Shown in pieces: positions 4,385 to 40,965 of a DNA stretch of 64,000 bases (within the stretch, counting starts at the first letter, position 1; every line of letters begins with the position of its first letter). The DNA is taken from the NCBI GenBank assembly GCA_002449785.1, contig DJXP01000019.1, positions 102,676-166,675 on the forward strand, in the 5' to 3' direction. This stretch comes from Clostridiales bacterium UBA7001 (GTDB lineage Bacteria; Bacillota; Clostridia; TANB77; CAG-508). Under the pieces are notes generated by a model that saw nothing but the letters and a program-made list of their open reading frames with translations, made no database searches and was not told where the DNA came from. The position numbers and the translations under genes were made by a program.

Positions 4385-5494
4385 TTAAGGTTGGTCAAAT
4401 GTATTATTTATACTTTGAAAAGACTTATGATTTTCTATATTAGTAGCACACTCATTTAGGAAATCATGTATACCTTGTAGATTTTCAATAATTTCAGCTT
4501 TGTTTTTTTCAAACCAATCAAAGTCAAGAGCATGTTTATATCTTTCATATGTATGCTTAACTAATAAATCCATTTTGGAATTTAAATTTTCCCAAGAATT
4601 TTCAGGAGATTTTGCAACTGAGTTATAAATTTGCTCTGAATTATTTGTACCCATAAATTGGTCTTGCTTAATTGTTTGACCCAATTTACATTTATTTAAT
4701 AATTTATCTGCACATATAGTTTCTTGTCTGTAACCACTTGAAACATATGTGCTTCTTCCTTTTGGAAGTGTTAAGGATTTTCTAAACTCTCTACATGATT
4801 CAGGAATATCATTTATTGGAATTGATAGAATTCTATTCATAATATTGTTTTCATCATATGTATTTATCCCTTCTTCAAGGCCTATATTTTTTTCGTCAAT
4901 ATCTTCAATAATAATTTTTCCATCTTGCATATAAACTTTACTTTGAAGAGTAGAGATTCCAGTTCGTGTAATTAATATGTTTTCTCCATTTTCATTTTGT
5001 ATTAGTCTCATACTATTTTTATTAGATTTAAAAGCATGAGATAATTCATGAACAAAAGTTGCAAGCATTTCTGGTTTATTTGGACTATCTAACAAAGACA
5101 CTATTTCGTGTTTTCCATTTAAACTTATAATACCATTTTCTTCTGAAAAAATAGGAAAAACATAATTAATTCCAGCAGATTTTTTTAATTCGCTAATTCC
5201 TACCGCAGTATTTTTTGACTTCATTTCAGTATTTGCAGGTGTGTGCCTTTTAACAACATCATAAATATTTTCTTCATTTTGTGGAATTTCAATAGTTACT
5301 TGTTTTAATACATCAAATAAAATATCTTTATACTCATGACCATAATATTCTATCATTATAGGAAATGAAAGCCTTAAAAGATTAGCAATCTTCTCATCAT
5401 ATTTTTTCTCTGAAATAATGGCTTCTAATTCAGAACTATATTGTGAATAAGGGTTGTATTTATATTTTTCTTGAAATGTTTGCATGTTTTTCAC
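4385..5494 (-). CDS. Hypothetical protein with HExxH zinc-metallopeptidase-like motif
   Basis: 'VHELSHAF' motif. No signal peptide. Confidence 0.45.
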   Translation of the reverse strand: MKNMQTFQEKYKYNPYSQYSSELEAIISEKKYDEKIANLLRLSFPIMIEYYGHEYKDILFDVLKQVTIEIPQNEENIYDVVKRHTPANTEMKSKNTAVGISELKKSAGINYVFPIFSEENGIISLNGKHEIVSLLDSPNKPEMLATFVHELSHAFKSNKNSMRLIQNENGENILITRTGISTLQSKVYMQDGKIIIEDIDEKNIGLEEGINTYDENNIMNRILSIPINDIPESCREFRKSLTLPKGRSTYVSSGYRQETICADKLLNKCKLGQTIKQDQFMGTNNSEQIYNSVAKSPENSWENLNSKMDLLVKHTYERYKHALDFDWFEKNKAEIIENLQGIHDFLNECATNIENHKSFQSINNTFDQP

Positions 5495-5552
5495 CTCAAA
5501 ATAATTATATTATTATTTTACTTAATGTGCAATGGTATTAGCTTTAATAAAG

Positions 5553-5581
5553 TTGACATTTTTGTAAAAACGTAGCATAAT
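5553..5581 (+). promoter_or_regulatory. SigA-type promoter of yqeG-like gene
   Basis: TTGACA (5553-5558), 17-nt spacer, CATAAT (5576-5581). Confidence 0.5.
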
Positions 5582-5618
5582 ATAAAAATGAATAAGAGAA
5601 TGTAGTAGGAGAGGCAAA

Positions 5619-27690: not shown

Positions 27691-28722
27691 ATGGATTTAG
27701 AAAACTTTGATTTTAAATCTTATTTAATTCAAATTGGTTTAGAAGAAAAATATGCTAAAATGCCAGTTGTAATTGAGTTTTTAAAAAATAGATTAAAAGA
27801 AGTAAAAGAGGATGACGAATTTGAAATAACTGACCGCGGAATCTTCTATAAAAATGGTGTAATTCGATTAGAAAGTGGTAAACTACGAATTTCGCCAAAT
27901 AGTTTTTTTACAGAGAAAAATGATGTATATGTTTATATAGAAGATGAGTTTTCTAAATATAAAATATCTGTTTTAGATGAATTTGGAACAATACAAAAAA
28001 TAATATACAGTAAAAAACATTCGTATGCGGATGAATACGAAAGAGTCGAAAGATTATATGAGTTAGATACTCCAATTATCGAATCTGTTGTAACTTACAA
28101 TGAAGAGGAAATATCACAAGATTATATTGCAGATTATGGAGACCCAGTTAGTTTAAATCCCAATGCTAAGAGCTTTGAAGAAAACTATAACTATTATACT
28201 AGAAAATATCCTGAACTTAAAAAATGGTATGATGATAGATATAAAATTAGCAATAAAAAAATTAAAGAATATTCTAATAAATTGAAAGATAAACAAAGCG
28301 ATTTGAGTATTAGGCTTATAAATGAACAAATTGAAAGATTTAATGGTTATATTGAAGAAGCTAAAAATAGAAAACAAGAATATCAAGAAAAACTTGATTT
28401 TAGAATGAGTTTATTTACAAATTGTAATTTTATAAAAAAACTTTTTTATAAACCATTAATAAAAGATATAAACGAAGAATTTAAGAAAATTGATGAAAAA
28501 AATGAATATAAAATAAAATCTGATGATGAAAAACTTAAAATTGAACATGAGAAGTTAGATAAAGATTATACCAATCCATTATCTGAAAAAGAAAAAGAAC
28601 TTGAAACCTTGAAAAATATTATGATAGATAAGAAAGTTGAACTTCATAATATTGAAAGAAATATTGGAGATATTATTAAAAAGATTGAAATTATTAAGCT
28701 TAAAACGCAAGATATAGAATAA
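27691..28722 (+). CDS. Hypothetical coiled-coil protein
   Basis: The C-terminal half is rich in K/E heptad-like sequence. No motif recognised. Confidence 0.5.
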   Translation: MDLENFDFKSYLIQIGLEEKYAKMPVVIEFLKNRLKEVKEDDEFEITDRGIFYKNGVIRLESGKLRISPNSFFTEKNDVYVYIEDEFSKYKISVLDEFGTIQKIIYSKKHSYADEYERVERLYELDTPIIESVVTYNEEEISQDYIADYGDPVSLNPNAKSFEENYNYYTRKYPELKKWYDDRYKISNKKIKEYSNKLKDKQSDLSIRLINEQIERFNGYIEEAKNRKQEYQEKLDFRMSLFTNCNFIKKLFYKPLIKDINEEFKKIDEKNEYKIKSDDEKLKIEHEKLDKDYTNPLSEKEKELETLKNIMIDKKVELHNIERNIGDIIKKIEIIKLKTQDIE

Positions 28723-28739: not shown

Positions 28740-29315
28740 ATGAAAGATTTAAGTAAAATTAATAAAGTATTGATAAATGTTGATATGGTAAATGGATTTG
28801 TAAATATTGGCGCTATGCACGATAAATATATTAATCATATAATACCAAAACAAATAAGTTTAATGGAAGAATTTGATAGGGAAGAGCAAAAACTTAATAT
28901 TATAGTAAAAGACACACATAAAGAAAATTGTATGGAGTTTAATAGATATCCTGTACATTGTGTTGAAAATACAGAAGAATCTGAACTTGTAGATGAATTA
29001 AAAAAATTTGAAAATGAAAATTCAATTTGCTTTAAGAAAAATTCTACTAGTACAATTTATGCAGAAGGATTCTTAGAATTAATAGATAACCTTAAAAATT
29101 TACAAGAAGTAATAATAGTAGGATGTTGTACAGATATTTGTATTTTAAATCTAGCAATACCTCTTAGAAACTATTTTGACCAAAAAGATAGAAATATTGA
29201 AATAATTATATATAAAGATTGTGTAGAAACATATGATGCACCAAATCATTCAAGGAATGAGTATACTGAAATGGCTTATAAATTAATGACACAAGCAGGA
29301 ATTAAAATCATTTAA
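28740..29315 (+). CDS. Isochorismatase/cysteine-hydrolase family protein (nicotinamidase-like)
   Basis: 'VLINVDMVNGF' and the catalytic-Cys region 'VIIVGCCTDICILN'. Confidence 0.7.
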   Translation: MKDLSKINKVLINVDMVNGFVNIGAMHDKYINHIIPKQISLMEEFDREEQKLNIIVKDTHKENCMEFNRYPVHCVENTEESELVDELKKFENENSICFKKNSTSTIYAEGFLELIDNLKNLQEVIIVGCCTDICILNLAIPLRNYFDQKDRNIEIIIYKDCVETYDAPNHSRNEYTEMAYKLMTQAGIKII

Positions 29316-29320
29316 ATCAG

Positions 29321-29821
29321 GTGGTGGGACTTAGGTTTGTATCTGAAAATATATATTTAAAAGATTATCCTGAAATAATGGAAATGTTTGAACGAACTAC
29401 TTCTATTGAACAAAGAGCAGTTTCTTTTAAAGTAAAGGAAGGTTACAAAAATAAAATTATTGAGACTTTTAATAATACTTTTGGAAACGATTTTTCACTT
29501 TATGAAAAAAAGGATATTATTGATAGTAAACTATTTGGAGACGGAGTTTCAAATGAATTATTTGAAGAAGCTATTGGAGATTTTATTGCAATAGCGGAAA
29601 AATCTAATAAATGCTTATTAACATATGGAGATAATCCTCAATTCTCACAACATGCAGGTTATACTGATGAGGAAATTTATATTCCATTAGGATTACTAGA
29701 CTATATACCTACTAGTAAGGTAATAGTAGGACTTGGAATTATTAAATTTAGAATGCCTATTAGTTTGGTTATACAATTACACAACCAAAATGCTTTACAT
29801 AATTGGTTCTTTAATGTATAA
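29321..29821 (+). pseudogene. Probable 3' remnant of an alkaline-phosphatase/phosphodiesterase-superfamily gene
   Basis: Only a C-terminal-like region is present ('FSQHAGYTDEEIYIPLGLL'), with no N-terminal metal-binding half. GTG start, and the tail of the ORF looks like read-through. Weak call. Confidence 0.3.
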
Positions 29822-29889
29822 TATTCAGTAAAAATATAGAGTAGACTACTTTTATATTTTGTTTTGGAGGTGTAAAAAAAAATAGCGAA

Positions 29890-30801
29890 ATGGAAAAGCA
29901 TATCAATAAATCTGTAAATCTAAAACAAATGGCAATTGAAATGCTCAAAGAAAATCACATTACTTATGATTGCATTGGAAACAAAGTTTATTATGGAATG
30001 GATAGTTTTACAATTCCAATAATGATAGAGGATACAATATTTTATTTTAAATTTTTTGTAGATGCATATGAAAATGATATAAATGCTGAAATTAAAATTG
30101 TAGAATATATTAAAAGCCAGAACATTACTATTGTTCCAAAATACTTTTCAAAAGAAAATAAAAAAGTTTTTAAATCACAAAAGTATAATATGGTATTTTA
30201 TGGAACACAAAGTATTGATGGTAAAACTAATACTCAATTAAATAGACAAATAGTCGAAAATATAGTTATTAATATTGCTACTATTCATTCTAAGTTAAAA
30301 CAATTTGATATGCAAAATATAGATTTAAGGAAGTCATATACTTCAGAAAGAATACTTAAACTATTTATAAAGAATAATCGATATAACGATTTTAAAAAAA
30401 TTAATAGCTATATTGAAGAGTTAATGTCAATAAATATAGAATATGAAAAATTATATCCTATACATGCAGATTTACATATTGGAAATTTTAAAATAATTAA
30501 TGGAAAACTCGAAGGAATTATAGATTTTTCAAATATTATGGAGGCATCATTTGAGTATGATGTTAGTAAGTTTTTTCAAGATATAATAATGAAGGATATT
30601 ATTAAAATAGATGAATTAGATGATTTAATACATTTATATAGAAATACATCAAAACTGAATTTGAATCTAAAGTGCTTATATGTGAATATAGCATATAATA
30701 TTTTATTTAGATATTTATATTCAAATGAAGATAATAATGAAAAAATATTATTCTCAGTAAAAGAGTTAATAAAATATGCAAATAATCTATATCAAATATG
30801 A
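29890..30801 (+). CDS. Aminoglycoside/choline-kinase-fold phosphotransferase
   Basis: Catalytic loop 'IHADLHIGNF' (HxDxxxxN) and 'IIDFSNI' (DFG-equivalent Asp). Confidence 0.7.
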   Translation: MEKHINKSVNLKQMAIEMLKENHITYDCIGNKVYYGMDSFTIPIMIEDTIFYFKFFVDAYENDINAEIKIVEYIKSQNITIVPKYFSKENKKVFKSQKYNMVFYGTQSIDGKTNTQLNRQIVENIVINIATIHSKLKQFDMQNIDLRKSYTSERILKLFIKNNRYNDFKKINSYIEELMSINIEYEKLYPIHADLHIGNFKIINGKLEGIIDFSNIMEASFEYDVSKFFQDIIMKDIIKIDELDDLIHLYRNTSKLNLNLKCLYVNIAYNILFRYLYSNEDNNEKILFSVKELIKYANNLYQI

Positions 30802-30817
30802 AAGGGGAATTAATATT

Positions 30818-31144
30818 ATGGATGAAAAAGATAAGGTAAAAGAAATGGCAAACGAAATTATTAAAAAAGGAAGCAAAGCACAGAATAGTGAAGAATTTAT
30901 TAGAACACAATTGAATAGATTTAAAAACTCGATTATTAATTTAGGATATTCTAATGAATCTATTGCATTTTTGGAAGAGTTTATAGAAGGAAGCCTTGAT
31001 ATGAGGGAACAAAGAACTAATTCTGGAGAAGAACCTAAAAAGGATAACATTTCAACTAAAAGGGAAGAACCCCAAACAACGGGATATAACACAATATCAG
31101 GATGTGCAAGTTGTGGTGGAAGTAGGAGAAAATCGAGATGTTAA
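30818..31144 (+). CDS. 109-aa protein with Cys-rich C-terminal tail (candidate RiPP precursor)
   Basis: Helical, acidic body ending in 'GYNTISGCASCGGSRRKSRC'. Its stop codon overlaps the next start codon (ATGTTAA at 31138-31144). AAAGGGGA Shine-Dalgarno sequence before the ATG at 30818. Confidence 0.5.
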   Translation: MDEKDKVKEMANEIIKKGSKAQNSEEFIRTQLNRFKNSIINLGYSNESIAFLEEFIEGSLDMREQRTNSGEEPKKDNISTKREEPQTTGYNTISGCASCGGSRRKSRC

Positions 31145-32439
31145 CAGATGATTTTTTTACTATAGCAAAGGATAATTTTTTATGTAATACTTCATATCCA
31201 TTAGATAAATACAATTGGAATGAATATAAAACAACTAATAATGTAGATATTTTCAATAACGAGCATGATTTTAATTTTTACATTCACATTCCATTTTGTG
31301 AGAAACTGTGTACATTTTGCGAATACATAAAATATCCTAAAAATGGTATAGAAAAAGAGAAAGAATATCTACGAATTTTAAAGAGGGATATATACAAATT
31401 TATAGAGGAACATAGTCCAATACAGCTTTATGGATTTGATATAGGAGGAGGAACTCCAACAGTTCTATATGATGATATATTTTCAGAATTAATGGATTTT
31501 TGCAAAAGTATTATAGATAGTATTAGTAAAGTAAAAGATATGGAGCCAAGTATTGAAGCTACATTTAATACTATTACAGAAAAAAAAGCAAAAAAAATAT
31601 TTAAAGCAGGATTTAGAAGAATTTCTTTGGGAATACAAACAAGAAATTCTTCATTTTTAAAGAAAAGCAATAGAGCAGATTTAGAAGATAGTAGTATTAT
31701 AGAAAAATGTAAGATGCTAAAAGATGTTGGAATTGAAAAAATTAATATTGATTTGATGTATGGGTTAGAAAAACAAACTTATGATGATATAAAAGAAACA
31801 TTAAAGCTTATTGAAATGATTAATCCTGAACAGGTAACTTTATATGAGATTAGATATAATTTGTTAAATAAAAAAATTGATATTAATAGGGAATATTTAT
31901 ATAATCAATACTTATTCTTTTATGATAATTTAATAAAAATGGGCTATTATGCTAGATTAGGTCAAAATACATTTTCTAAAAATAAGCAGGATTTTGGGTT
32001 ATCATCTTATCTTAGATATAGAATGATAGACAATGTTTCATATAAAGGATTTGGAATTGCTGCTCAATCTAAGTCAAAAATTGGTATTAGTTATAATGTA
32101 GGGAAAAACAGAAAAAAACTTGATGATTGTTTAAATTTTAATTCATTTGGAGAAGAAGATACTTATTTATTACCAAAGGAAGAATTATTAGCAAAGTATA
32201 TTGCAATTAGTATGTATTACGGAATGTTTAAAATATCAGTAATGCAAGATATATTAAAAGCAGATCCACTTGATGTATATGGAACAGAGTTTGAATTTTT
32301 AAAAAATAATAAATATATTGAAATGAAAGGGGATAACGTATTTTTAACTGAAACAGGATTTAAATTTTACGGAGCTATTGGAGCTTTGTTTTATTCAAAT
32401 AAAGTAAAAAAATGGTTATTAGATAAAAATAATGTTTGA
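31138..32439 (+). CDS. HemN-like (class C-type) radical SAM enzyme
   Basis: 'HIPFCEKLCTFCEY' (CxxxCxxC), the 'GGGTP' motif and a HemN-type C-terminal region. Confidence 0.8.
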   Translation: MLTDDFFTIAKDNFLCNTSYPLDKYNWNEYKTTNNVDIFNNEHDFNFYIHIPFCEKLCTFCEYIKYPKNGIEKEKEYLRILKRDIYKFIEEHSPIQLYGFDIGGGTPTVLYDDIFSELMDFCKSIIDSISKVKDMEPSIEATFNTITEKKAKKIFKAGFRRISLGIQTRNSSFLKKSNRADLEDSSIIEKCKMLKDVGIEKINIDLMYGLEKQTYDDIKETLKLIEMINPEQVTLYEIRYNLLNKKIDINREYLYNQYLFFYDNLIKMGYYARLGQNTFSKNKQDFGLSSYLRYRMIDNVSYKGFGIAAQSKSKIGISYNVGKNRKKLDDCLNFNSFGEEDTYLLPKEELLAKYIAISMYYGMFKISVMQDILKADPLDVYGTEFEFLKNNKYIEMKGDNVFLTETGFKFYGAIGALFYSNKVKKWLLDKNNV

Positions 32440-33325
32440 GGAAATAGAATTATTAGGAAAAAAAATAAAAATAAAAAATTATAATTGTTCTATAAATAAA
32501 GATATTTTTCAACGCGAAAAAATAAAATTAAATCTTTATATAAAAATAAATGATGAATGTAATGCACAATGTTTATATTGTAGTAATCATAATATGAAAA
32601 ACAATGGTAAATTAGATATTGAAAAGCTTAAATTCTTGTTAAAAGAGTTAAAAAAACAAGACTTAATAAATAGAATTTCAATTACTGGTGGAGAGCCAAT
32701 GTTAAATTTTGAATTATTAAATAATGTAGTAAATTCAGTTTTTGAGGTTATTCCTAATGCATTCTTAACTATAAACACTAATGGATTTAATTTAAAGAAT
32801 ATATTAAATTTGGATGAAATTGATAAAATTGAAGGAGTTCATATAAGTAGACATCATTATGATGATATAAAGAATAACAAAATTTTTGGAATTGAAGTTG
32901 CAAGTTATAATGATATAAAAAATGTAATGGAAATGCTTAGTAATAAAAGATTAATAAGATTAAATTGTTTGTTACTGAAAGGAAATATTGACAATATAGA
33001 TGAGGTAAATAAATATTTAGAATTTGCAAGTTTGCTTGATGTTTTTAGGGTAGGATTTGTATCTTTAATGAAAGTTAGTGATTATTGTAAAGAAAATTTT
33101 ATAGATTTTAATAATGTTTTTAATAAAGATAAAAATGTATTAAAACATTATTATGATAAGAATATATGTGAATGTATTAATGGTGCATATATTTCAAATG
33201 AAGGAAAGATTATAGAATACTATGCAAGAATGACAAAAGAATTAAATTGTGAATATTCCAGACAGTTCGTTTATACATCTGATAACAAATTAACTCTAGG
33301 ATTTGGCAAAGAGATAATTATTTAA
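32432..33325 (+). CDS. Radical SAM enzyme (MoaA/PqqE/SkfB-like core)
   Basis: 'NDECNAQCLYCSNH' (CxxxCxxC) and 'ISITGGEPML'. Three C-terminal Cys ('DYC', 'ICEC'). The start overlaps the upstream stop by 8 nt. Confidence 0.8.
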   Translation: MFEEIELLGKKIKIKNYNCSINKDIFQREKIKLNLYIKINDECNAQCLYCSNHNMKNNGKLDIEKLKFLLKELKKQDLINRISITGGEPMLNFELLNNVVNSVFEVIPNAFLTINTNGFNLKNILNLDEIDKIEGVHISRHHYDDIKNNKIFGIEVASYNDIKNVMEMLSNKRLIRLNCLLLKGNIDNIDEVNKYLEFASLLDVFRVGFVSLMKVSDYCKENFIDFNNVFNKDKNVLKHYYDKNICECINGAYISNEGKIIEYYARMTKELNCEYSRQFVYTSDNKLTLGFGKEIII

Positions 33326-33389
33326 AAAAGAGCTATTTGTTGAAGTGCTCACCATATAGTAGACACTAAAAAAGAGTGCTCTTATATTT

Positions 33390-33427
33390 AGAGACTACAT
33401 TCATTAATTGTAGTCTCTATTTTTTTG
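33390..33427 (+). terminator. Rho-independent terminator of the radical-SAM operon
   Basis: 10-bp stem AGAGACTACA / TGTAGTCTCT followed by a T-run. Confidence 0.75.
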
Positions 33428-33587: not shown

Positions 33588-33699
33588 ATTACGAAAAAAG
33601 TACCTAAACGGAAAAAATTCGTAATACAAAATTGACAATAGTTTATATGAATGGTATAATTATTACGAAAAAGTTCCACAAACGGAAAAAATTCGTAAT
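33588..33699 (+). promoter_or_regulatory. Consensus promoter bracketed by two 38-bp repeat operators
   Basis: Repeats lie at 33588-33625 and 33662-33699 (ATTACGAAAAA..AAACGGAAAAAATTCGTAAT). Each has 8-bp inverted ends ATTACGAA/TTCGTAAT. Between them are TTGACA (33632-33637), a 17-nt spacer and TATAAT (33655-33660). Confidence 0.65.
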
Positions 33700-33712
33700 G
33701 GAGGTTTGGCAT

Positions 33713-34957
33713 ATGGAAATAAAAAGAGATCTATATTTAAAAAGACTTATTGAAGGCTTGGATAATGGATTAGTTAAAGTTGTAACAGGAATTAGAAGAT
33801 GCGGAAAATCCTATTTATTAGATCCTATTTTTAAGAATTATTTGCTTGAACAAGGTATTAAAGAAGATCATATTATAAAATTAGATTTAGATGAAAGAGA
33901 AAATTATATATATCACGATCCAGATGAATTAAATAAGTATGTTAAAGAAAAAATAATAGATAAATATAAGTATTATGTTATATTAGATGAAATTCAAAAA
34001 GTCAAAGAATTTGAATCTGTATTAATAGGATTTTTACATATGAAAAATGTAGAAGTTTATGTTACAGGAAGTAATTCAAAATTCTTGTCTTCTGATATTA
34101 TTACAGAATTTAGAGGTAGAGGCTGGGAAATTAAAGTATATCCACTATCTTTTAGCGAGTTTTATTCAATATATAATGGTTCAGAGGAAAAAGCATTAAA
34201 TGAATATTATACTTATGGAGGCTTACCATTGACAGTTCTTGCAAAATCAGACGAAGGTAAAATATCATATTTAAAGTCTCAAAAAGATAATGTGTATATA
34301 AAAGATATTATAGATAGAAATAATATTCAAAATAAAGAAGAATTAGAAATGCTTGTACAGATAATTTCTTCTGACATAGGATCTCTTACTAATCCATTAA
34401 AATTATCTAATAATTTTAAAGAAAGAGATAAAACATCAACAATGACAGATAAAACAATATATAATTATTTAGGATATTTACAAGATGCTTTTATGATAGA
34501 GAAAGCAAAAAGATTTGATGTTAGAGGTAAAAGATTCATAGAAACACCTCAAAAATATTATTTTACAGACATGGGAATAAGAAATTCTTTTTTAGATTTT
34601 AGACAAAGTGAAGAAATATCACATACAATGGAAAATGTTATTTATTTAGAATTAAAAAAGAGAGGATATAATGTTGATATAGGCTCTGTTGAAATTAGAG
34701 AAGGAGATAAAAGGAAACAATTAGAGATTGATTTTGTTGCTAATAAAGGTAATAACAAAATATACATTCAGTCGGCATTAGAAATGAAGACAAAAGAAAA
34801 AGTAGAACAAGAACAGAAATCTTTGTTAAATGTTAATGATTTCTTCAAAAAAATTATTATAGTAGGAGATAATATAAAAAGATCAAGATATGATAATGGA
34901 ATTATCATTATGAGTATATATGATTTCCTTCTAGATAATGAAAGTCTAAAATATTAA
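33713..34957 (+). CDS. AAA-family ATPase with DUF4143-type C-terminal domain
   Basis: Walker A 'GIRRCGKSYLL' and Walker B 'ILDEIQKV'. GGAGG Shine-Dalgarno sequence before the ATG at 33713. The ORF-track TTG at 33632 is the promoter -35 box. Confidence 0.75.
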   Translation: MEIKRDLYLKRLIEGLDNGLVKVVTGIRRCGKSYLLDPIFKNYLLEQGIKEDHIIKLDLDERENYIYHDPDELNKYVKEKIIDKYKYYVILDEIQKVKEFESVLIGFLHMKNVEVYVTGSNSKFLSSDIITEFRGRGWEIKVYPLSFSEFYSIYNGSEEKALNEYYTYGGLPLTVLAKSDEGKISYLKSQKDNVYIKDIIDRNNIQNKEELEMLVQIISSDIGSLTNPLKLSNNFKERDKTSTMTDKTIYNYLGYLQDAFMIEKAKRFDVRGKRFIETPQKYYFTDMGIRNSFLDFRQSEEISHTMENVIYLELKKRGYNVDIGSVEIREGDKRKQLEIDFVANKGNNKIYIQSALEMKTKEKVEQEQKSLLNVNDFFKKIIIVGDNIKRSRYDNGIIIMSIYDFLLDNESLKY

Positions 34958-35090: not shown

Positions 35091-35166
35091 TGGTCGAGGT
35101 GACAGGGATCGAACCTGCGACCTCATGGTCCCAAACCACGCGCGCTACCAACTGCGCTACACCTCG
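35091..35166 (-). tRNA. tRNA-Pro(TGG)
   Basis: Folded by hand from the reverse complement. Acceptor stem CGAGGTG/CACCTCG, anticodon loop TTTGGGA, T-arm GCAGGTTCGATCCCTGT, and CCA is encoded. Confidence 0.9.
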
Positions 35167-35215: not shown

Positions 35216-35292
<77 letters not shown>

Positions 35293-37696: not shown

Positions 37697-38110
37697 ATGA
37701 AAAAAAATGTAATTAAAGCAATTTCACTATTATTAGTTGCAGTTTTATGTGTAACAGTATTAACAACAATTGTTAATGGCGAGACAATAGGTTATAAAAA
37801 TATTGATACAACAACAGTTACTGAAAGTGCTCAAGATACATCTGGAGCTGCTGGATTAATAAACCAATGGATGGGTGCTGCTTTAACAATTGTGCAAGTC
37901 GTTGGTGTTGGTGTAGCTGTTATTATGTTAATTATATTAGCTATTAAATATATTTCTGCTGCTCCAAGTGATAAAGCAGAAATCAAAAAACATGCTGTTG
38001 TATATGTAGTTGGTGCAGTAGTATTATTTGCAGCATCAGGAATTTTACAATTAATAAAAACATTTGCTAACCAAGCTAATGATACATTTTCAGGTTCAGG
38101 TAAACCATAG
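37697..38110 (+). CDS. VirB2/TrbC-like T4SS pilin paralog 1 (monocistronic)
   Basis: Signal peptide, a variable segment, then 'VQVVGVGVAVIMLIILAIKYISAAPSDKAEIKKHAVVYVVGAVVLFAASGIL' (TM helix, basic loop, TM helix). It has its own promoter and terminator. Confidence 0.7.
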   Translation: MKKNVIKAISLLLVAVLCVTVLTTIVNGETIGYKNIDTTTVTESAQDTSGAAGLINQWMGAALTIVQVVGVGVAVIMLIILAIKYISAAPSDKAEIKKHAVVYVVGAVVLFAASGILQLIKTFANQANDTFSGSGKP

Positions 38111-38126
38111 AGAAAGAATTATAAAG

Positions 38127-38161
38127 AACAAGCAGATTTTTAATCTGTTTGTTTTTTTTTT
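38127..38161 (+). terminator. Rho-independent terminator after pilin 1
   Basis: Stem AACAAGCAGATT / AATCTGTTTGTT followed by a T10 run. Confidence 0.8.
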
Positions 38162-38208
38162 GCAAAAATATTTACAAATCTTATATTTATATATAATATT
38201 ATAATTAG

Positions 38209-38237
38209 TTGAAAAAAAAGTAAAAAAATGTTATAAT
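38209..38237 (+). promoter_or_regulatory. Promoter of the pilin 2-6 unit
   Basis: TTGAAA (38209-38214), 17-nt spacer, TATAAT (38232-38237). Confidence 0.65.
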
Positions 38238-38284
38238 ATAAGAGAAAGATTTTAACATTAATATGTTTGCAGGAGGTAAATATT

Positions 38285-38662
38285 ATGAAAAAAAGTTTAA
38301 TGAAGCTTGTAATTTCTTTAATTATATTTTGCTTTGTTTTAGGATTTTATTTTTATTTCTCACAAGTAGAAGCCTTTGACTGGGGAGGAGAGATTAATAA
38401 TACTGTAGCATCTGAAGATAGTTCAGGAGTTTCTACATCTCTTACCGGGTTAGCTGGTACAGTGGTTACCGTTGTAAGAGTGATTTGTATGGGAGTTGCA
38501 GTAATTATGTTAATTGTTCTTGGAATAAAATATATGGTTTCAGCTCCTAGTGATAGGGCTAGTATTATGAAACATGCTTGGGTATATTTAGTAGGAGCTT
38601 TGATTATGTTTGCAAGTAGTGCAATAATTGGAATTATTGCTAAATTTGCAAGTCAATTATAA
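38285..38662 (+). CDS. VirB2/TrbC-like pilin paralog 2
   Basis: 'VVRVICMGVAVIMLIVLGIKYMVSAPSDRASIMKHAWVYLVGALIMF'. AGGAGG Shine-Dalgarno sequence before the ATG at 38285. Confidence 0.7.
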   Translation: MKKSLMKLVISLIIFCFVLGFYFYFSQVEAFDWGGEINNTVASEDSSGVSTSLTGLAGTVVTVVRVICMGVAVIMLIVLGIKYMVSAPSDRASIMKHAWVYLVGALIMFASSAIIGIIAKFASQL

Positions 38663-38685
38663 TTAGCAATTTTTAGGAGGAAAAA

Positions 38686-39066
38686 ATGAAAAAAGTTCAT
38701 GTAGTAAAATTTTTTGCGATAATATTAATGTTTTTTTTAATAAGTAGTTCATTTGTTTATGTTTCAAATGCTGGAGAACAAATGATAAAAACACTTCAAA
38801 CCGTAGATGAAGCACAAGATTCAACAAATGCTACAAAAACTGTTAGAAGTGTTCTTGGAACAATATTAGTAGCTGTTCAAATTGTTGCTATGACAGTTGC
38901 TGTTGTTATTTTATTAGTTCTTGCAATGAAATATATGGCTGCAGCTCCAGGAGAAAAAGCAGATATAAAAAAGAGTTTTTTTGTGTATGTTGTAGGAGCA
39001 GTAGTTGTATTTGGGGCAATTGGAATATTAAGAGTAATAGAGATGGCATCACATGCAATCGGATAA
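38686..39066 (+). CDS. VirB2/TrbC-like pilin paralog 3
   Basis: 'AVQIVAMTVAVVILLVLAMKYMAAAPGEKADIKKSFFVYVVGAVVVF'. Confidence 0.7.
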   Translation: MKKVHVVKFFAIILMFFLISSSFVYVSNAGEQMIKTLQTVDEAQDSTNATKTVRSVLGTILVAVQIVAMTVAVVILLVLAMKYMAAAPGEKADIKKSFFVYVVGAVVVFGAIGILRVIEMASHAIG

Positions 39067-39107
39067 TTATAAATAAAGAAATAGAAAAGTGTATGTGGAG
39101 GAGTATA

Positions 39108-39479
39108 ATGAAAAATAATCTTATTAAAATTATTTCAGTTGCAATTATTATATGTATGAGTTTTGGTGTGATGAACATAGTTATAGCAGCTGATAATGGT
39201 AGATTTCAAGTGGAAAGATTTGAAGATAAAGAAAATCCAATTGATAATACAACAAAAAATGCTACTGCTACTATTATTAGTGCTGTTAGAATTGTTGGAG
39301 TAACAGTTGCGATTGTAATGCTTCTTGTAATAGCAATGAAATATATGGCATCAGCTCCTGGAGATAGAGCAGATATAAAAAAACATGCAGTAGCTTATGT
39401 AATAGGTGCTGTTATACTTTTTGGCGTATCTGGAATACTTGGAATTTTAGTAGAAATAGCAGGAGCAATAAAAGCTTAA
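39108..39479 (+). CDS. VirB2/TrbC-like pilin paralog 4
   Basis: 'AVRIVGVTVAIVMLLVIAMKYMASAPGDRADIKKHAVAYVIGAVILF'. Confidence 0.7.
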   Translation: MKNNLIKIISVAIIICMSFGVMNIVIAADNGRFQVERFEDKENPIDNTTKNATATIISAVRIVGVTVAIVMLLVIAMKYMASAPGDRADIKKHAVAYVIGAVILFGVSGILGILVEIAGAIKA

Positions 39480-39514
39480 ATTAGTTAATAATAAAAAGAT
39501 AAATGGTGATTATT

Positions 39515-39886
39515 ATGAAAAAAGTTTTAGCGATAGTAGTAATTGTAATGTTAATAATTTCATTTGGTTATAATATGGTTATGGCTGTTGATGGTGGTTT
39601 TATAACATCAAATTTTTCAGGAGCAGATCCTGATGGTGATGTAAGCAATGCAGCAGGAGAAATATTAGGTGGGATATTAGCAGTTGTAAGAGTTGCTGGT
39701 GTTACTACAGCAGTAGTTATTTTAATGGTAATTGGTATAAAATATCTAATTGCATCAGCAGGAGATAGAGCAGATATAAAAAAATATGCTGTAAAATATA
39801 TAATAGGTGCTTTAATTCTTTTTTCAGCATCAGGACTAATAGGAATTGCTCAAGGAATTATATCTGAAAGTGTTAAAGCCGATTAA
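39515..39886 (+). CDS. VirB2/TrbC-like pilin paralog 5
   Basis: 'VVRVAGVTTAVVILMVIGIKYLIASAGDRADIKKYAVKYIIGALILF'. Confidence 0.7.
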   Translation: MKKVLAIVVIVMLIISFGYNMVMAVDGGFITSNFSGADPDGDVSNAAGEILGGILAVVRVAGVTTAVVILMVIGIKYLIASAGDRADIKKYAVKYIIGALILFSASGLIGIAQGIISESVKAD

Positions 39887-39907
39887 CTATAGAAAAGAGG
39901 ATTAAAT

Positions 39908-40291
39908 ATGAAAAGGGTTTTATATATTTTTTTAATTTTAATAATTATATGTAATTTTATTAATTTTTTTTATAATATTTCTTATGCAAAAGATGGAAAA
40001 ATTGATGCACTTATTGGTCAAGCAAGTGAGGCTCAAAATCCTGCAGATACAGAAGGAGATCCTTTTTTTGAAGGCATTAATAAAATAATAGGAATTATTC
40101 AAATTGTAGGAACAGGTATTTCAATTATTGTTGTTTCAATTCTTGGAATAAAATATATGATGGCAAGTCCAGGTGAAAAAGCAGATGTTAAGAAAAATAT
40201 TTTACCAATAATATATGGATGTGTATTGGTATTTGGTGGAGTAAATGTGGTCGCAATTATTGCAAATTTCTCAAGTAAAGTATTAAAATAA
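39908..40291 (+). CDS. VirB2/TrbC-like pilin paralog 6
   Basis: 'IIQIVGTGISIIVVSILGIKYMMASPGEKADVKKNILPIIYGCVLVF'. Confidence 0.7.
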   Translation: MKRVLYIFLILIIICNFINFFYNISYAKDGKIDALIGQASEAQNPADTEGDPFFEGINKIIGIIQIVGTGISIIVVSILGIKYMMASPGEKADVKKNILPIIYGCVLVFGGVNVVAIIANFSSKVLK

Positions 40292-40387
40292 TGCTTTACA
40301 GAAAATATTAAATAATTATTTAATATTTAATTTTTATTAAATTATATCGTTATTTAAAAAATTAAATATATAAAAAATAGTTTTAAG

Positions 40388-40430
40388 AGATTTTTGCGAT
40401 ACTTATGTAATTTGCAAAAATCTTTTTTTG
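40388..40430 (+). terminator. Rho-independent terminator after pilin 6
   Basis: Stem AGATTTTTGC / GCAAAAATCT followed by a T7 run. Confidence 0.75.
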
Positions 40431-40470
40431 TTACAATTTTATTAAAAATATCAAATATTATACAAAAATA

Positions 40471-40499
40471 TTGAAAAAAATTTTTGTTTTAAGTATAAT
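40471..40499 (+). promoter_or_regulatory. Promoter of the core T4SS-like operon
   Basis: TTGAAA (40471-40476), 17-nt spacer, TATAAT (40494-40499). Confidence 0.65.
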
Positions 40500-40578
40500 T
40501 AATATAATAGTGATATTATGCGAAGAAATTAGATTTATTATAGTTATATAGCAATTCTTGCAAGAAAGGGTGAGAAAA

Positions 40579-40965
40579 ATGAAAAAAATGTTATTTATTA
40601 AAACTTTATTAGCATTATCCTTATTTTTTGTGGTATTTTCAAATTTTAATTATTCTCATGCAAGTCTTTTAAGTGATATGAGAGGGCAAATTAATTCATT
40701 TGAATCACAAGGTCAAGGTGTAAATGTTGATACGGGAAATGTTGTTAAACCATTTGTTGAACTTGCTAGATTACTTATGACAATTGGTGCTGGTGTATTA
40801 GTAGCTGTTACAACATATATGGGTATTAAATATTTAACATCTGGACCAGATGCACAAGCTAAGTTAAAAGTTCAATTAATTGGATTAGTAGTTTCAGGTT
40901 TTGTTATTTTTGGAGCATATTTTATTTGGAAAATAGTATTAACTTTTGCAAATAATTCATTATAA
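40579..40965 (+). CDS. Divergent VirB2/TrbC-like pilin paralog 7 (first gene of the core operon)
   Basis: 'LMTIGAGVLVAVTTYMGIKYLTSGPDAQAKLKVQLIGLVVSGFVIF'. Same architecture as the other six but the lowest similarity to them. Confidence 0.6.
   Translation: MKKMLFIKTLLALSLFFVVFSNFNYSHASLLSDMRGQINSFESQGQGVNVDTGNVVKPFVELARLLMTIGAGVLVAVTTYMGIKYLTSGPDAQAKLKVQLIGLVVSGFVIFGAYFIWKIVLTFANNSL

Follow-up and report, generated by a model that had tools for sequence, protein, structure and literature searches.

Small ribosomal products that are modified at or near the C-terminus by an adjacent, cognate radical S-adenosylmethionine (rSAM) enzyme are known from the mycofactocin (MftA/MftC) and pyrroloquinoline quinone (PqqA/PqqE) pathways, and both have a role in primary or redox metabolism. 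A comparable arrangement lies in a 64,000-nucleotide stretch of Clostridiales bacterium UBA7001 (GenBank assembly GCA_002449785.1, contig DJXP01000019.1, positions 102,676 to 166,675), here called the window, in which an earlier reading of the bare sequence (the original prediction) had marked positions 29890-33427 as a candidate cassette for a new kind of ribosomally synthesised and post-translationally modified peptide (RiPP). The conserved unit is a small protein ending in Cys plus an rSAM enzyme of about 300 amino acids (aa), and those two alone. The pair recurs in gut anaerobes, often within operons for the salvage of nicotinamide adenine dinucleotide (NAD), and in huge phages. No description of it was found in the literature, and the best reading is that it constitutes a previously undescribed module of which the window holds a mobile variant. 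Loci labelled L001, L002 and so on are related contigs that carry homologues.

MftC and PqqE differ from the module in having SPASM domains and the RiPP recognition element (RRE) chaperones MftB and PqqD, neither of which was found in it, and in acting on Val-Tyr or Glu/Tyr where the module's target would be Cys. The pearlin pathways to 3-thiaglutamate and 3-thiahomoleucine (PMC9303977) come closer in this respect, as the chemistry there takes place on a small ribosomal scaffold, at its C-terminal Cys, and an rSAM methyltransferase is a possible tailoring enzyme. However, the Cys of the module is gene-encoded, whereas that of pearlin is added by PEARL, a LanB-like aminoacyl-tRNA-dependent ligase for which no gene was found in the window or the related loci surveyed. 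The module also has no DUF692/HEXXH enzyme for beta-carbon excision, its core enzyme belongs to another rSAM clade, and its context is NAD salvage. A looser analogy may be drawn with the thiazole synthase THI4 and with LarE of the nickel-pincer cofactor pathway, where a protein Cys is consumed on a molecule derived from NAD or nicotinic acid adenine dinucleotide; a throw-away protein with several Cys-Gly units would fit such a scheme. THI4 and LarE are not rSAM enzymes, the sacrificial Cys sits in the enzyme itself, and the module has no LarB, LarC or thiamin genes nearby. MoaA and viperin resemble the core enzyme in size and are its best full-length structural neighbours, and like MoaA it has three extra conserved Cys, possibly for an open-site cluster. 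In the module, these Cys are placed otherwise (one N-terminal, plus a CxC) and the small-protein partner is obligatory, while MoaC and a pVip-type nucleotide kinase are lacking, the adjacent kinase of the window having an APH fold. No molybdenum cofactor genes were present in any surveyed locus.

Layout of the Cassette

The source organism has a G+C content of about 25%, and its closest species-level relatives are metagenome-assembled genomes of uncultured Clostridia and Bacilli. The cassette consists of four genes, all on the + strand, bracketed by a promoter-like site and a terminator:

29794-29822, + strand: promoter-like site upstream of the kinase gene, TTTACA-17-TATAAT, 11/12 matches
29890-30801, + strand: APH-fold kinase gene, 303 aa; Pfam APH 28.6 bits, over the cut-off
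30818-31144, + strand: small Cys-ended protein gene, 108 aa; AAGGGG ribosome-binding site about 9 nt upstream
31138-32439, + strand: HemN-like rSAM gene, 433 aa; Pfam Radical_SAM
32432-33325, + strand: core rSAM gene, 297 aa; Pfam Radical_SAM
about 33389-33426, + strand: intrinsic terminator at the operon end, 11-bp stem, 9-nt loop, U7 tail

The original prediction had described four coupled genes ending at a strong terminator, and this layout held throughout, all open reading frames (ORFs) being found. A gap of 16 nt separates the kinase and small-protein genes; the stop codon of the latter lies within an ATGTTAA shared with the HemN-like start (7-nt overlap), and the HemN-like stop overlaps the core rSAM start by 8 nt. 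The hairpin folds at -15.3 kcal/mol (z = -5.7; 0/200 shuffles fold equally well) and was overlooked by a simple terminator scan because its loop is longer than 8 nt. The promoter-like site is a consensus match only, as shuffled versions of this AT-rich region yield such sites no less often. The motifs given for the three enzymes were also in place: HADLHIGN (residue 192) and IDFS (211) in the kinase, CEKLCTFC (54) and GGGTP (103) in the HemN-like enzyme, and CNAQCLYC (43) and GGEPML (86) in the 297-aa enzyme. The four-gene arrangement is far beyond chance, since the whole block recurs in L001 and the pair of small protein and rSAM enzyme in more than 80 loci.

A Conserved Pair

Taking one genome per species, the survey gave 80 loci, and pairing and context were counted over 83 non-redundant loci with gene calls from a crude longest-ORF caller. 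The carriers are mostly gut and rumen Bacilli (RF39 or 'Tenericutes'-like), Clostridia and Lachnospiraceae, and include the cultured Butyrivibrio sp. VCB2006, B. proteoclasticus P6B7 and Eubacterium ruminantium FB3002. In 68/83 loci, the rSAM gene has beside it, or one gene away, an ORF on the same strand that encodes 60-210 aa and ends in Cys; among background genes, 9/1245 (0.7%) end in Cys. Most of the 15 loci without a called Cys-ended ORF are truncated contigs or miscalls that were resolved in the raw ORF list. The functional link that had been proposed between the Cys-tailed protein and an rSAM enzyme is thus borne out, in that the relatives found keep the C-terminal Cys and adjoin the rSAM enzyme. 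The kinase and two rSAM genes as a defining unit did not survive the survey; the kinase has two homologues in all and the HemN-like gene is present in 18/83 loci.

The cassette of the window is mobile. In L001, the same four genes stand amid integrase, AbiEii, relaxase, MobC, TnpV and RepA_N genes, and because their context differs there, the block can be said to move as a unit. The mobilisable element with the relocated cassette also carries a pemK RNA motif (Rfam, 52 bits; L001 2272-2390, - strand) beside DUF6076 and AbiEii genes. Plasmids and phages searched by megablast contained no match to the cassette.

The small protein of the window ends in GCASCGGSRRKSRC, its last three residues being SRC. 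It had been described as an acidic, helical protein of 109 aa; it has 108 aa and an overall isoelectric point (pI) of 7.7, and the acidic, helical description applies to the N-terminal 75 aa (pI 5.2), the tail being basic (pI 9.1). The AlphaFold2 (AF2) model has helices at residues 3-19, 24-42 and 46-68 (pLDDT, the model's own confidence score, of about 83) and a disordered tail at 69-108. Foldseek gave no significant match for what is a generic three-helix bundle. The searches detected seven relatives, with identities of 72% and above; the GCASCGG.R..SRC ending is kept in 5/5 that are full length, and the tail is better conserved than the linker among these close relatives. Small proteins of all types lie outside the models of Pfam and NCBIfam, and a profile search of 1.84 billion representative proteins returned close relatives only, so the family was traced via the rSAM partner.

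Three types of small protein (window, Bacilli and Lachnospiraceae) emerged that are too diverged for BLAST or HMMER, and their N-terminal domains were compared as profiles by hhalign. The window and Bacilli types matched with a probability of 86% (E = 5.6e-6) and the Bacilli and Lachnospiraceae types with 90% (E = 1.7e-6), while the match of the window and Lachnospiraceae types was weak and in the same register; these alignments indicate that the N-terminal domains are homologous across the types. In the tails, which are flexible and rich in Ser, Gly and Arg, the terminal Cys is the sole invariant residue, with the endings GRC at 24 loci, SRC at 11 and GGC at 6, followed by RGC, RSC and others. 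Many of the small proteins carry a single Cys, at the terminus. Where an internal tail Cys is present, it is followed by Gly in 52/88 cases, against a Gly share of 6.7% among tail residues. The Bacilli-type tails (alignment A5; for example L023 9609-9995) have a near-invariant K-H-Y-x-H-Y some 20 residues ahead of S-x-x-C-G and the terminal Cys, and three VDHCG repeats take its place in L005. Both motifs look metal-binding or cross-linking, and they are missing from the window and Lachnospiraceae types.

The Core rSAM Enzyme

Homologues of the 297-aa enzyme fill 265 clusters or more, the most distant at about 40% identity. The family signature comprises CxxxCxxC, TGGEP, TNG, HISRHHYDD (the SRH motif) and CxC, together with C19, C246 and C248, which are invariant from Firmicutes to huge phages; the window enzyme has the CxxxCxxC, GGEP and SRH motifs as well as the three Cys. 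Three C-terminal Cys had been singled out in the original prediction, of which C246 and C248 are family-invariant and C273 is not, with C19 as the third invariant Cys instead. In MoaA, three extra Cys hold an auxiliary Fe-S cluster whose open iron binds substrate, and we infer from the conserved Cys that C19, C246 and C248 could hold such a cluster here.

The AF2 model of the enzyme (pLDDT 93.8) has MoaA (template modelling, TM, score 0.62) and viperin-like enzymes (TM 0.64-0.66) as full-length structural neighbours in Foldseek, while the alignments to the peptide-modifying rSAM enzymes SuiB, EpeE, SkfB and CteB are confined to the rSAM core. All NCBIfam matches fall far under the curated cut-offs: MoaA (63 bits vs 284), HxsC (59 vs 268), viperin (30 vs 180), PapB (30 vs 340), StsB (25 vs 625) and PqqE (33 vs 381). 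PADLOC returned a weak pVip match, 'viperins associated with kinases' (E = 3e-11). The enzyme belongs to an uncurated clade and has, as judged from its model, a MoaA/viperin-like fold. No SPASM or twitch domain was found in the rSAM enzymes by Pfam, NCBIfam or structural matches, and no Pfam or NCBIfam match to an RRE/PqqD-like recognition element for any of the four cassette proteins.

NAD Salvage Context

Neighbours within 6 kb were clustered, checked against Pfam and NCBIfam and mapped for gene order, with PnuC-NadR, NadD, PncA/B, CinA, NadK and NrtR counted as NAD-salvage genes. At least one of these lies in the fetched flank of 47/83 loci; by group, 43/65 loci without a HemN-like gene have one, vs 4/18 with it. 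The association is strong, recurs in different gene orders and is facultative. Four architectures can be distinguished:

Bacilli: Prs-NadD-PnuC-NadR-small-rSAM-CinA-NrtR-NadK, with overlapping junctions
L005, L011 and L013: PncA-PncB-NadE-NadD-small-HemN-rSAM-CinA-NadK-NrtR
Lachnospiraceae: small-LRR_5 protein-rSAM-DUF2201 metallopeptidase/VWA-MoxR ATPase, followed by PnuC-NadR(-NrtR) in about half of the loci
Clostridia: small-rSAM-HemN, with NAD genes absent nearby

The NAD context of the window itself is a single gene, two genes upstream of the cassette:

28740-29315, + strand: isochorismatase-family gene, PncA-like nicotinamidase candidate; Pfam Isochorismatase E = 7e-20

Its product is 40-54% identical to that of the PncA-like gene that heads NAD operons beside PncB in L017, L038, L011, L013, L029, L027 and L005. 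It serves as context, lies outside the mobile four-gene block and is missing beside the relocated cassette in L001. Two enzymes in the class of relatives 64-65% identical to the window enzyme also have neighbours of this kind: P0017 in L088 lies near NadE and a NAMPT_N/NAPRTase gene, and P0015 in L090 adjoins PnuC.

Other companions were noted along the way. In the Lachnospiraceae-type loci, a cytoplasmic BspA-type LRR_5 protein occurs in 40, a DUF2201_N metallopeptidase with VWA in 37 and a MoxR-type AAA_5 ATPase in 34 (examples are L049 4287-8727, L057 4103-5092, L053 5146-6408 and L061 13538-14629); tail binding, proteolytic release, and chaperoning or metal insertion are possibilities for these three. 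The conserved neighbours in the Lachnospiraceae loci without PnuC-NadR were considered as alternative NAD enzymes and rejected, as their N-termini look by eye like PurB, MetF, PurF and diaminopimelate (DAP) aminotransferase. In nine loci (such as L031 6696-7106 and L003 5966-6370), the Bacilli NAD operons are headed by a protein of about 120-136 aa that neither Pfam nor NCBIfam matches, and L005 has two adjacent small ORFs of 130 and 120 aa (4854-5246 and 5249-5611) at the same operon position that do not cluster with this family. An ADP-ribosylglycohydrolase gene (Pfam E = 3e-35) directly follows the rSAM gene in L030 (9278-10159) and likewise in the Bacilli NAD operons of L025, L029 and L037, which hints at ADP-ribose chemistry nearby.

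Phage-Borne Copies

The pair of Cys-ended protein and rSAM enzyme is also found in viral contigs, including phages of 630-735 kb. Three of these place it beside NAD genes, and it stands alone in L104, L092 and L093:

L091, phage contig: NadM-like NMNAT/Nudix-NAMPT-rSAM-small; the small protein ends in ...SRITRC
L106, 635-kb phage: TonB-dependent receptor-PnuC-NadR-small-rSAM; the small protein ends in ...RRSSC
L105, 642-kb phage: small-rSAM beside divergently transcribed NadR and PnuC; the small protein ends in ...STSRC

NARP2 (NAMPT plus NMNAT) and NARP3 (PnuC plus NadR) are described phage pathways of NAD reconstitution (PMC13464706), and it is these genes that the pair adjoins in L091, L105 and L106, as well as PnuC-NadR in some 35 bacterial loci. 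The described pathways, in contrast, include no rSAM enzyme or Cys-ended protein, and neither is mentioned in the NARP3 paper (PMC13464706) or in the NAD-ADPr survey.

In the huge phages L106 (4104-6086) and L105 (10570-12621, - strand), a gene for a TonB-dependent outer-membrane receptor adjoins PnuC-NadR, which suggests a phage-borne route across two membranes for the uptake of an NAD precursor. Near the pair in L091 (9491-10273) and L092 (6521-7306) is an rSAM of about 260 aa that resembles a truncated RlmN/Cfr and matches the RlmN model under its cut-off (E = 1e-24 and 2e-19), and it may be the phage counterpart of the HemN-like second enzyme. Both RlmN/Cfr-like and HemN-like class-C-type rSAM enzymes methylate aromatic sp2 carbons.

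HemN-like Enzyme and Kinase

The HemN-like rSAM stays under every NCBIfam cut-off, with 149 bits vs 380 for STM4012, its best match, 124 vs 205 for HemW, 118 vs 325 for HemN and 111 vs 400 for ChuW. Among PDB sequences it matches HemN (E = 4e-21) and NocN (E = 5e-13), and its CEKLCTFCEY motif is a CxxxCxxC that lacks the fourth Cys of HemN (CxxxCxxCxC). On these matches it is assignable to the HemN-like superfamily only, and it is probably a class-C-type rSAM C-methyltransferase. Since the scores of both rSAM enzymes are all under cut-off, neither is a housekeeping HemW or MoaA, in line with the original prediction, nor a member of a curated maturase family. The STM4011-STM4015 cluster (NCBIfam naming) also pairs a HemN-like rSAM with a second rSAM enzyme, and it resembles the cassette in that STM4012 is the top family model for the HemN-like enzyme. 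The likeness ends at a score far short of the cut-off; the 297-aa enzyme is absent among the STM4011 matches, and no paper on STM4012 was found in the literature.

By BLAST, the HemN-like gene lies either upstream or downstream of the core rSAM gene, and the loci that have it are those with a core enzyme sharing about 47% identity or more with that of the window. The kinase, with HxDxxxxN and DFS motifs, has only two homologues among 5.8 billion proteins (with 97% and 87% identity), each within a copy of this cassette (L001 and L002), so its context gives no leverage; among PDB sequences it has only a marginal match to the amicoumacin kinase (E = 0.01). The best reading is that two tailoring genes, for the HemN-like enzyme and the APH kinase, were added to the core pair in particular lineages.

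Surroundings of the Cassette

Two ORFs of the window flank the PncA-like gene, one of them in the interval between it and the cassette:

27691-28722, + strand: 343-aa ORF, rich in Lys, Glu and Asp, on the other side of the PncA-like gene
29321-29821, + strand: 166-aa ORF, on the cassette side of the PncA-like gene; without a match in Pfam, NCBIfam or PADLOC

Neither has a library match, and L002, a near-identical contig, is the only place where homologues were found. The cassette is followed directly by a PDC-S01 gene (33632-34957, + strand; AAA_14 and DUF4143 domains; PADLOC E = 2e-118). A promoter-like site at 33632-33660, with a 12/12 sigma-70 consensus and an extended -10, begins at the first base of the TTG ORF listed for it, so the true start is probably an internal ATG (MEIKRDL...). 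Just past this gene are two tRNA genes (35094-35166 and 35219-35292, - strand), and as tRNA pairs are a typical integration hotspot, the cassette may lie in a variable island. Further on, at 37697-40965 (+ strand), eight paralogous ORFs of about 126-137 aa form a tandem array, each with a signal-peptide-like N-terminus and a conserved membrane segment, ...KYMxSAPGDRADIKKHA..., followed by large + strand ORFs of up to 1403 aa. The array resembles TrbC/VirB2-type pilins, and from its sequence the region looks like a conjugative element.

Proposed Mechanism and Alternatives

The explanation put forward here is that a carrier-like protein brings its terminal Cys to the active site of the rSAM enzyme as a reactive partner and that the product acts in NAD metabolism, a reading to which we give about an even chance. 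The three-helix domain would act as a handle that docks the small protein on the enzyme, and the tail would thread into the active site, where the terminal Cys thiolate, and probably the free carboxylate too, would bind the open iron of the auxiliary cluster on C19, C246 and C248. The 5'-deoxyadenosyl radical would then start a chemistry with the terminal Cys as reactive partner, in which the Cys is either transformed or cross-linked, or acts as donor of sulfur or hydrogen for a bound pyridine nucleotide or nucleoside. Candidate chemistries include a thioether or C-C adduct to the nicotinamide ring, a sacrificial sulfur transfer like that of THI4 or LarE, and oxidative decarboxylation or epimerisation of the terminal Cys, any one of which, taken by itself, is a long shot. 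De novo synthesis of the pyridine ring from the terminal Cys was rejected on chemical reasoning, as Cys or dehydroalanine would give a 2-carboxy and not a 3-carboxy pyridine. In the window variant, the HemN-like enzyme might add a methyl or methylene group and the APH kinase might phosphorylate a tail Ser/Thr or a riboside.

The product would have its role in the supply, conversion or protection of the NAD pool. The recurrence of the module in operons for NAD salvage, and in phages among genes for NAD reconstitution, makes a role of its product in pyridine-nucleotide metabolism the most likely one, and a secreted antibiotic is an unlikely product. The Cys as site of chemistry, the nucleotide co-substrate and the physiological role are all put forward here as what the gene pairing, fold and context suggest. 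The fallback offered in the original prediction, maturation of a Cys-tailed carrier protein, comes closer to this evidence than its main proposal; the embedding in NAD salvage and in phages lay beyond the view of that reading, the interpretation of which is partly supported overall.

Several observations weigh against this explanation. The NAD link is facultative, with 36/83 loci lacking an NAD gene in the fetched flank, and it is weakest in the HemN-containing group to which the window belongs (the 4/18 given above, plus L088, L090 and the PncA-like gene of the window). No NAD riboswitch (nadA or pnuC motif) was found by Rfam in the window and five loci, where only tRNAs and the pemK RNA were detected. 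The likeness in fold to MoaA and viperin is moderate (TM about 0.63) and is no proof of nucleotide binding, and the auxiliary cluster is deduced from three conserved Cys only. As the species-representative loci are phylogenetically related, the counts overstate the number of independent events. Finally, the defence-type neighbours (PDC-S01 in the window, AbiEii in L001) would fit a role in conflict too.

Among the alternatives, the classical RiPP of the original prediction survives best, unlikely as it is. Here, the 108-aa protein would be a long-leader precursor with a Cys/Ser/Thr core of about 20 aa, on which both rSAM enzymes and the kinase act before an antimicrobial or signalling peptide is released. 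A precursor-like gene directly ahead of two rSAM genes with overlapping junctions is what such a pathway would have, and a small gene adjoining a modifying enzyme, a generic trait of RiPPs, is kept in 68 or more of the 83 loci. The tail is conserved above the linker in close relatives, the repeated Cys motifs of many tails recall multi-core precursors, there are weak similarities to HxsC, PapB and StsB, and the cassette is carried on a mobile element. In the Lachnospiraceae version, the additional metallopeptidase-VWA and AAA ATPase could free a product. This DUF2201 metallopeptidase-VWA and MoxR ATPase set is confined to that version, however, and the window has no leader peptidase, protease, exporter or immunity gene, as had been remarked at the outset. 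RRE, SPASM and twitch signatures, expected if the rSAM enzymes were of the RiPP type, were looked for and not found; the supposed leader is a conserved, folded three-helix domain, atypical of a leader; only the terminal Cys is invariant, with many members having a single Cys; and the kinase and second rSAM are not conserved. It is also hard to see why a secreted antibiotic would be encoded in phages, or by gut Bacilli with reduced genomes in the midst of core operons for NAD salvage. The earlier remark that the combination fits no described RiPP class stands, and no curated model matches either. Of the parts of lanthipeptide III/IV/V or thioamitide systems, the window has an APH-fold kinase only and no phospho-Ser/Thr lyase, cyclase or HFCD gene. 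With regard to the His-Xaa-Ser system, the HxsC score is far below its cut-off, the partner is HemN-like and not HxsB, and the tail has no HxS repeats.

A second alternative, which seems more doubtful still, is that the small protein is not a substrate at all and serves the nucleotide-acting rSAM enzyme as a chaperone for Fe-S or metal, as a shuttle for redox equivalents or hydrogen atoms, or as a regulator. Ribonucleotide reductases, with their C-terminal Cys tails, offer a parallel for the shuttle role. The nearness of the fold to the nucleotide-acting MoaA and viperin would suit this, and so would the metal-binding look of the KHYxHY His/Tyr motifs and Cys-Gly repeats of the Bacilli tails and of the three VDHCG repeats of L005. 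Yet the Lachnospiraceae type is a charged helix with a single terminal Cys and no motifs of that appearance, an invariant residue placed strictly at the C-terminus points to a tail inserted in an active site more than to metal delivery in general, and one-to-one, translationally coupled pairing is typical of enzymes and their substrates. The idea of a conflict system, in which a viperin-like enzyme and a kinase make an anti-phage nucleotide and the phage version is a counter-defence that protects or mimics NAD against NADase effectors, has the weak PADLOC match, the flanking PDC-S01 candidate defence gene and tRNA genes, the AbiEii gene beside the L001 cassette and the phage copies next to NARP2- and NARP3-type genes (PMC13464706 for NARP3) in its favour, but is the least probable, as the viperin score is a sixth of its cut-off, PADLOC has no other model match to support a defence role of the cassette, most bacterial copies sit in housekeeping NAD operons under NrtR rather than in defence islands, and the kinase is missing from all but the closest relatives.

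Outlook

NAD salvage is regarded as a fully mapped pathway. Dozens of gut species have a conserved rSAM enzyme outside the curated families, together with its obligatory Cys-ended partner, between NadR and CinA, and in phages the two lie by NAMPT-NadM or PnuC-NadR; this placement suggests that a reaction or cofactor is missing from the pathway. It is conceivable, on a tentative estimate that leans towards no, that through the Cys-ended protein and its rSAM enzyme gut anaerobes and huge phages have in common a radical step of pyridine-nucleotide metabolism, protein-dependent and hitherto unknown. Possible forms of such a step are the synthesis or conversion of an NAD precursor, the making of an NAD-derived or NADase-resistant cofactor on a throw-away carrier or with sulfur from it, and an accessory arm of phage NAD reconstitution. 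The depletion and reconstitution of NAD is at present a central battleground between bacteria and phages. The three-helix handle, the flexible tail and the invariant C-terminal Cys together make a new signature for genome mining, one that searches with a hidden Markov model of the small protein and RiPP tools based on RRE or SPASM would miss, and the cultured carriers make the module directly testable.

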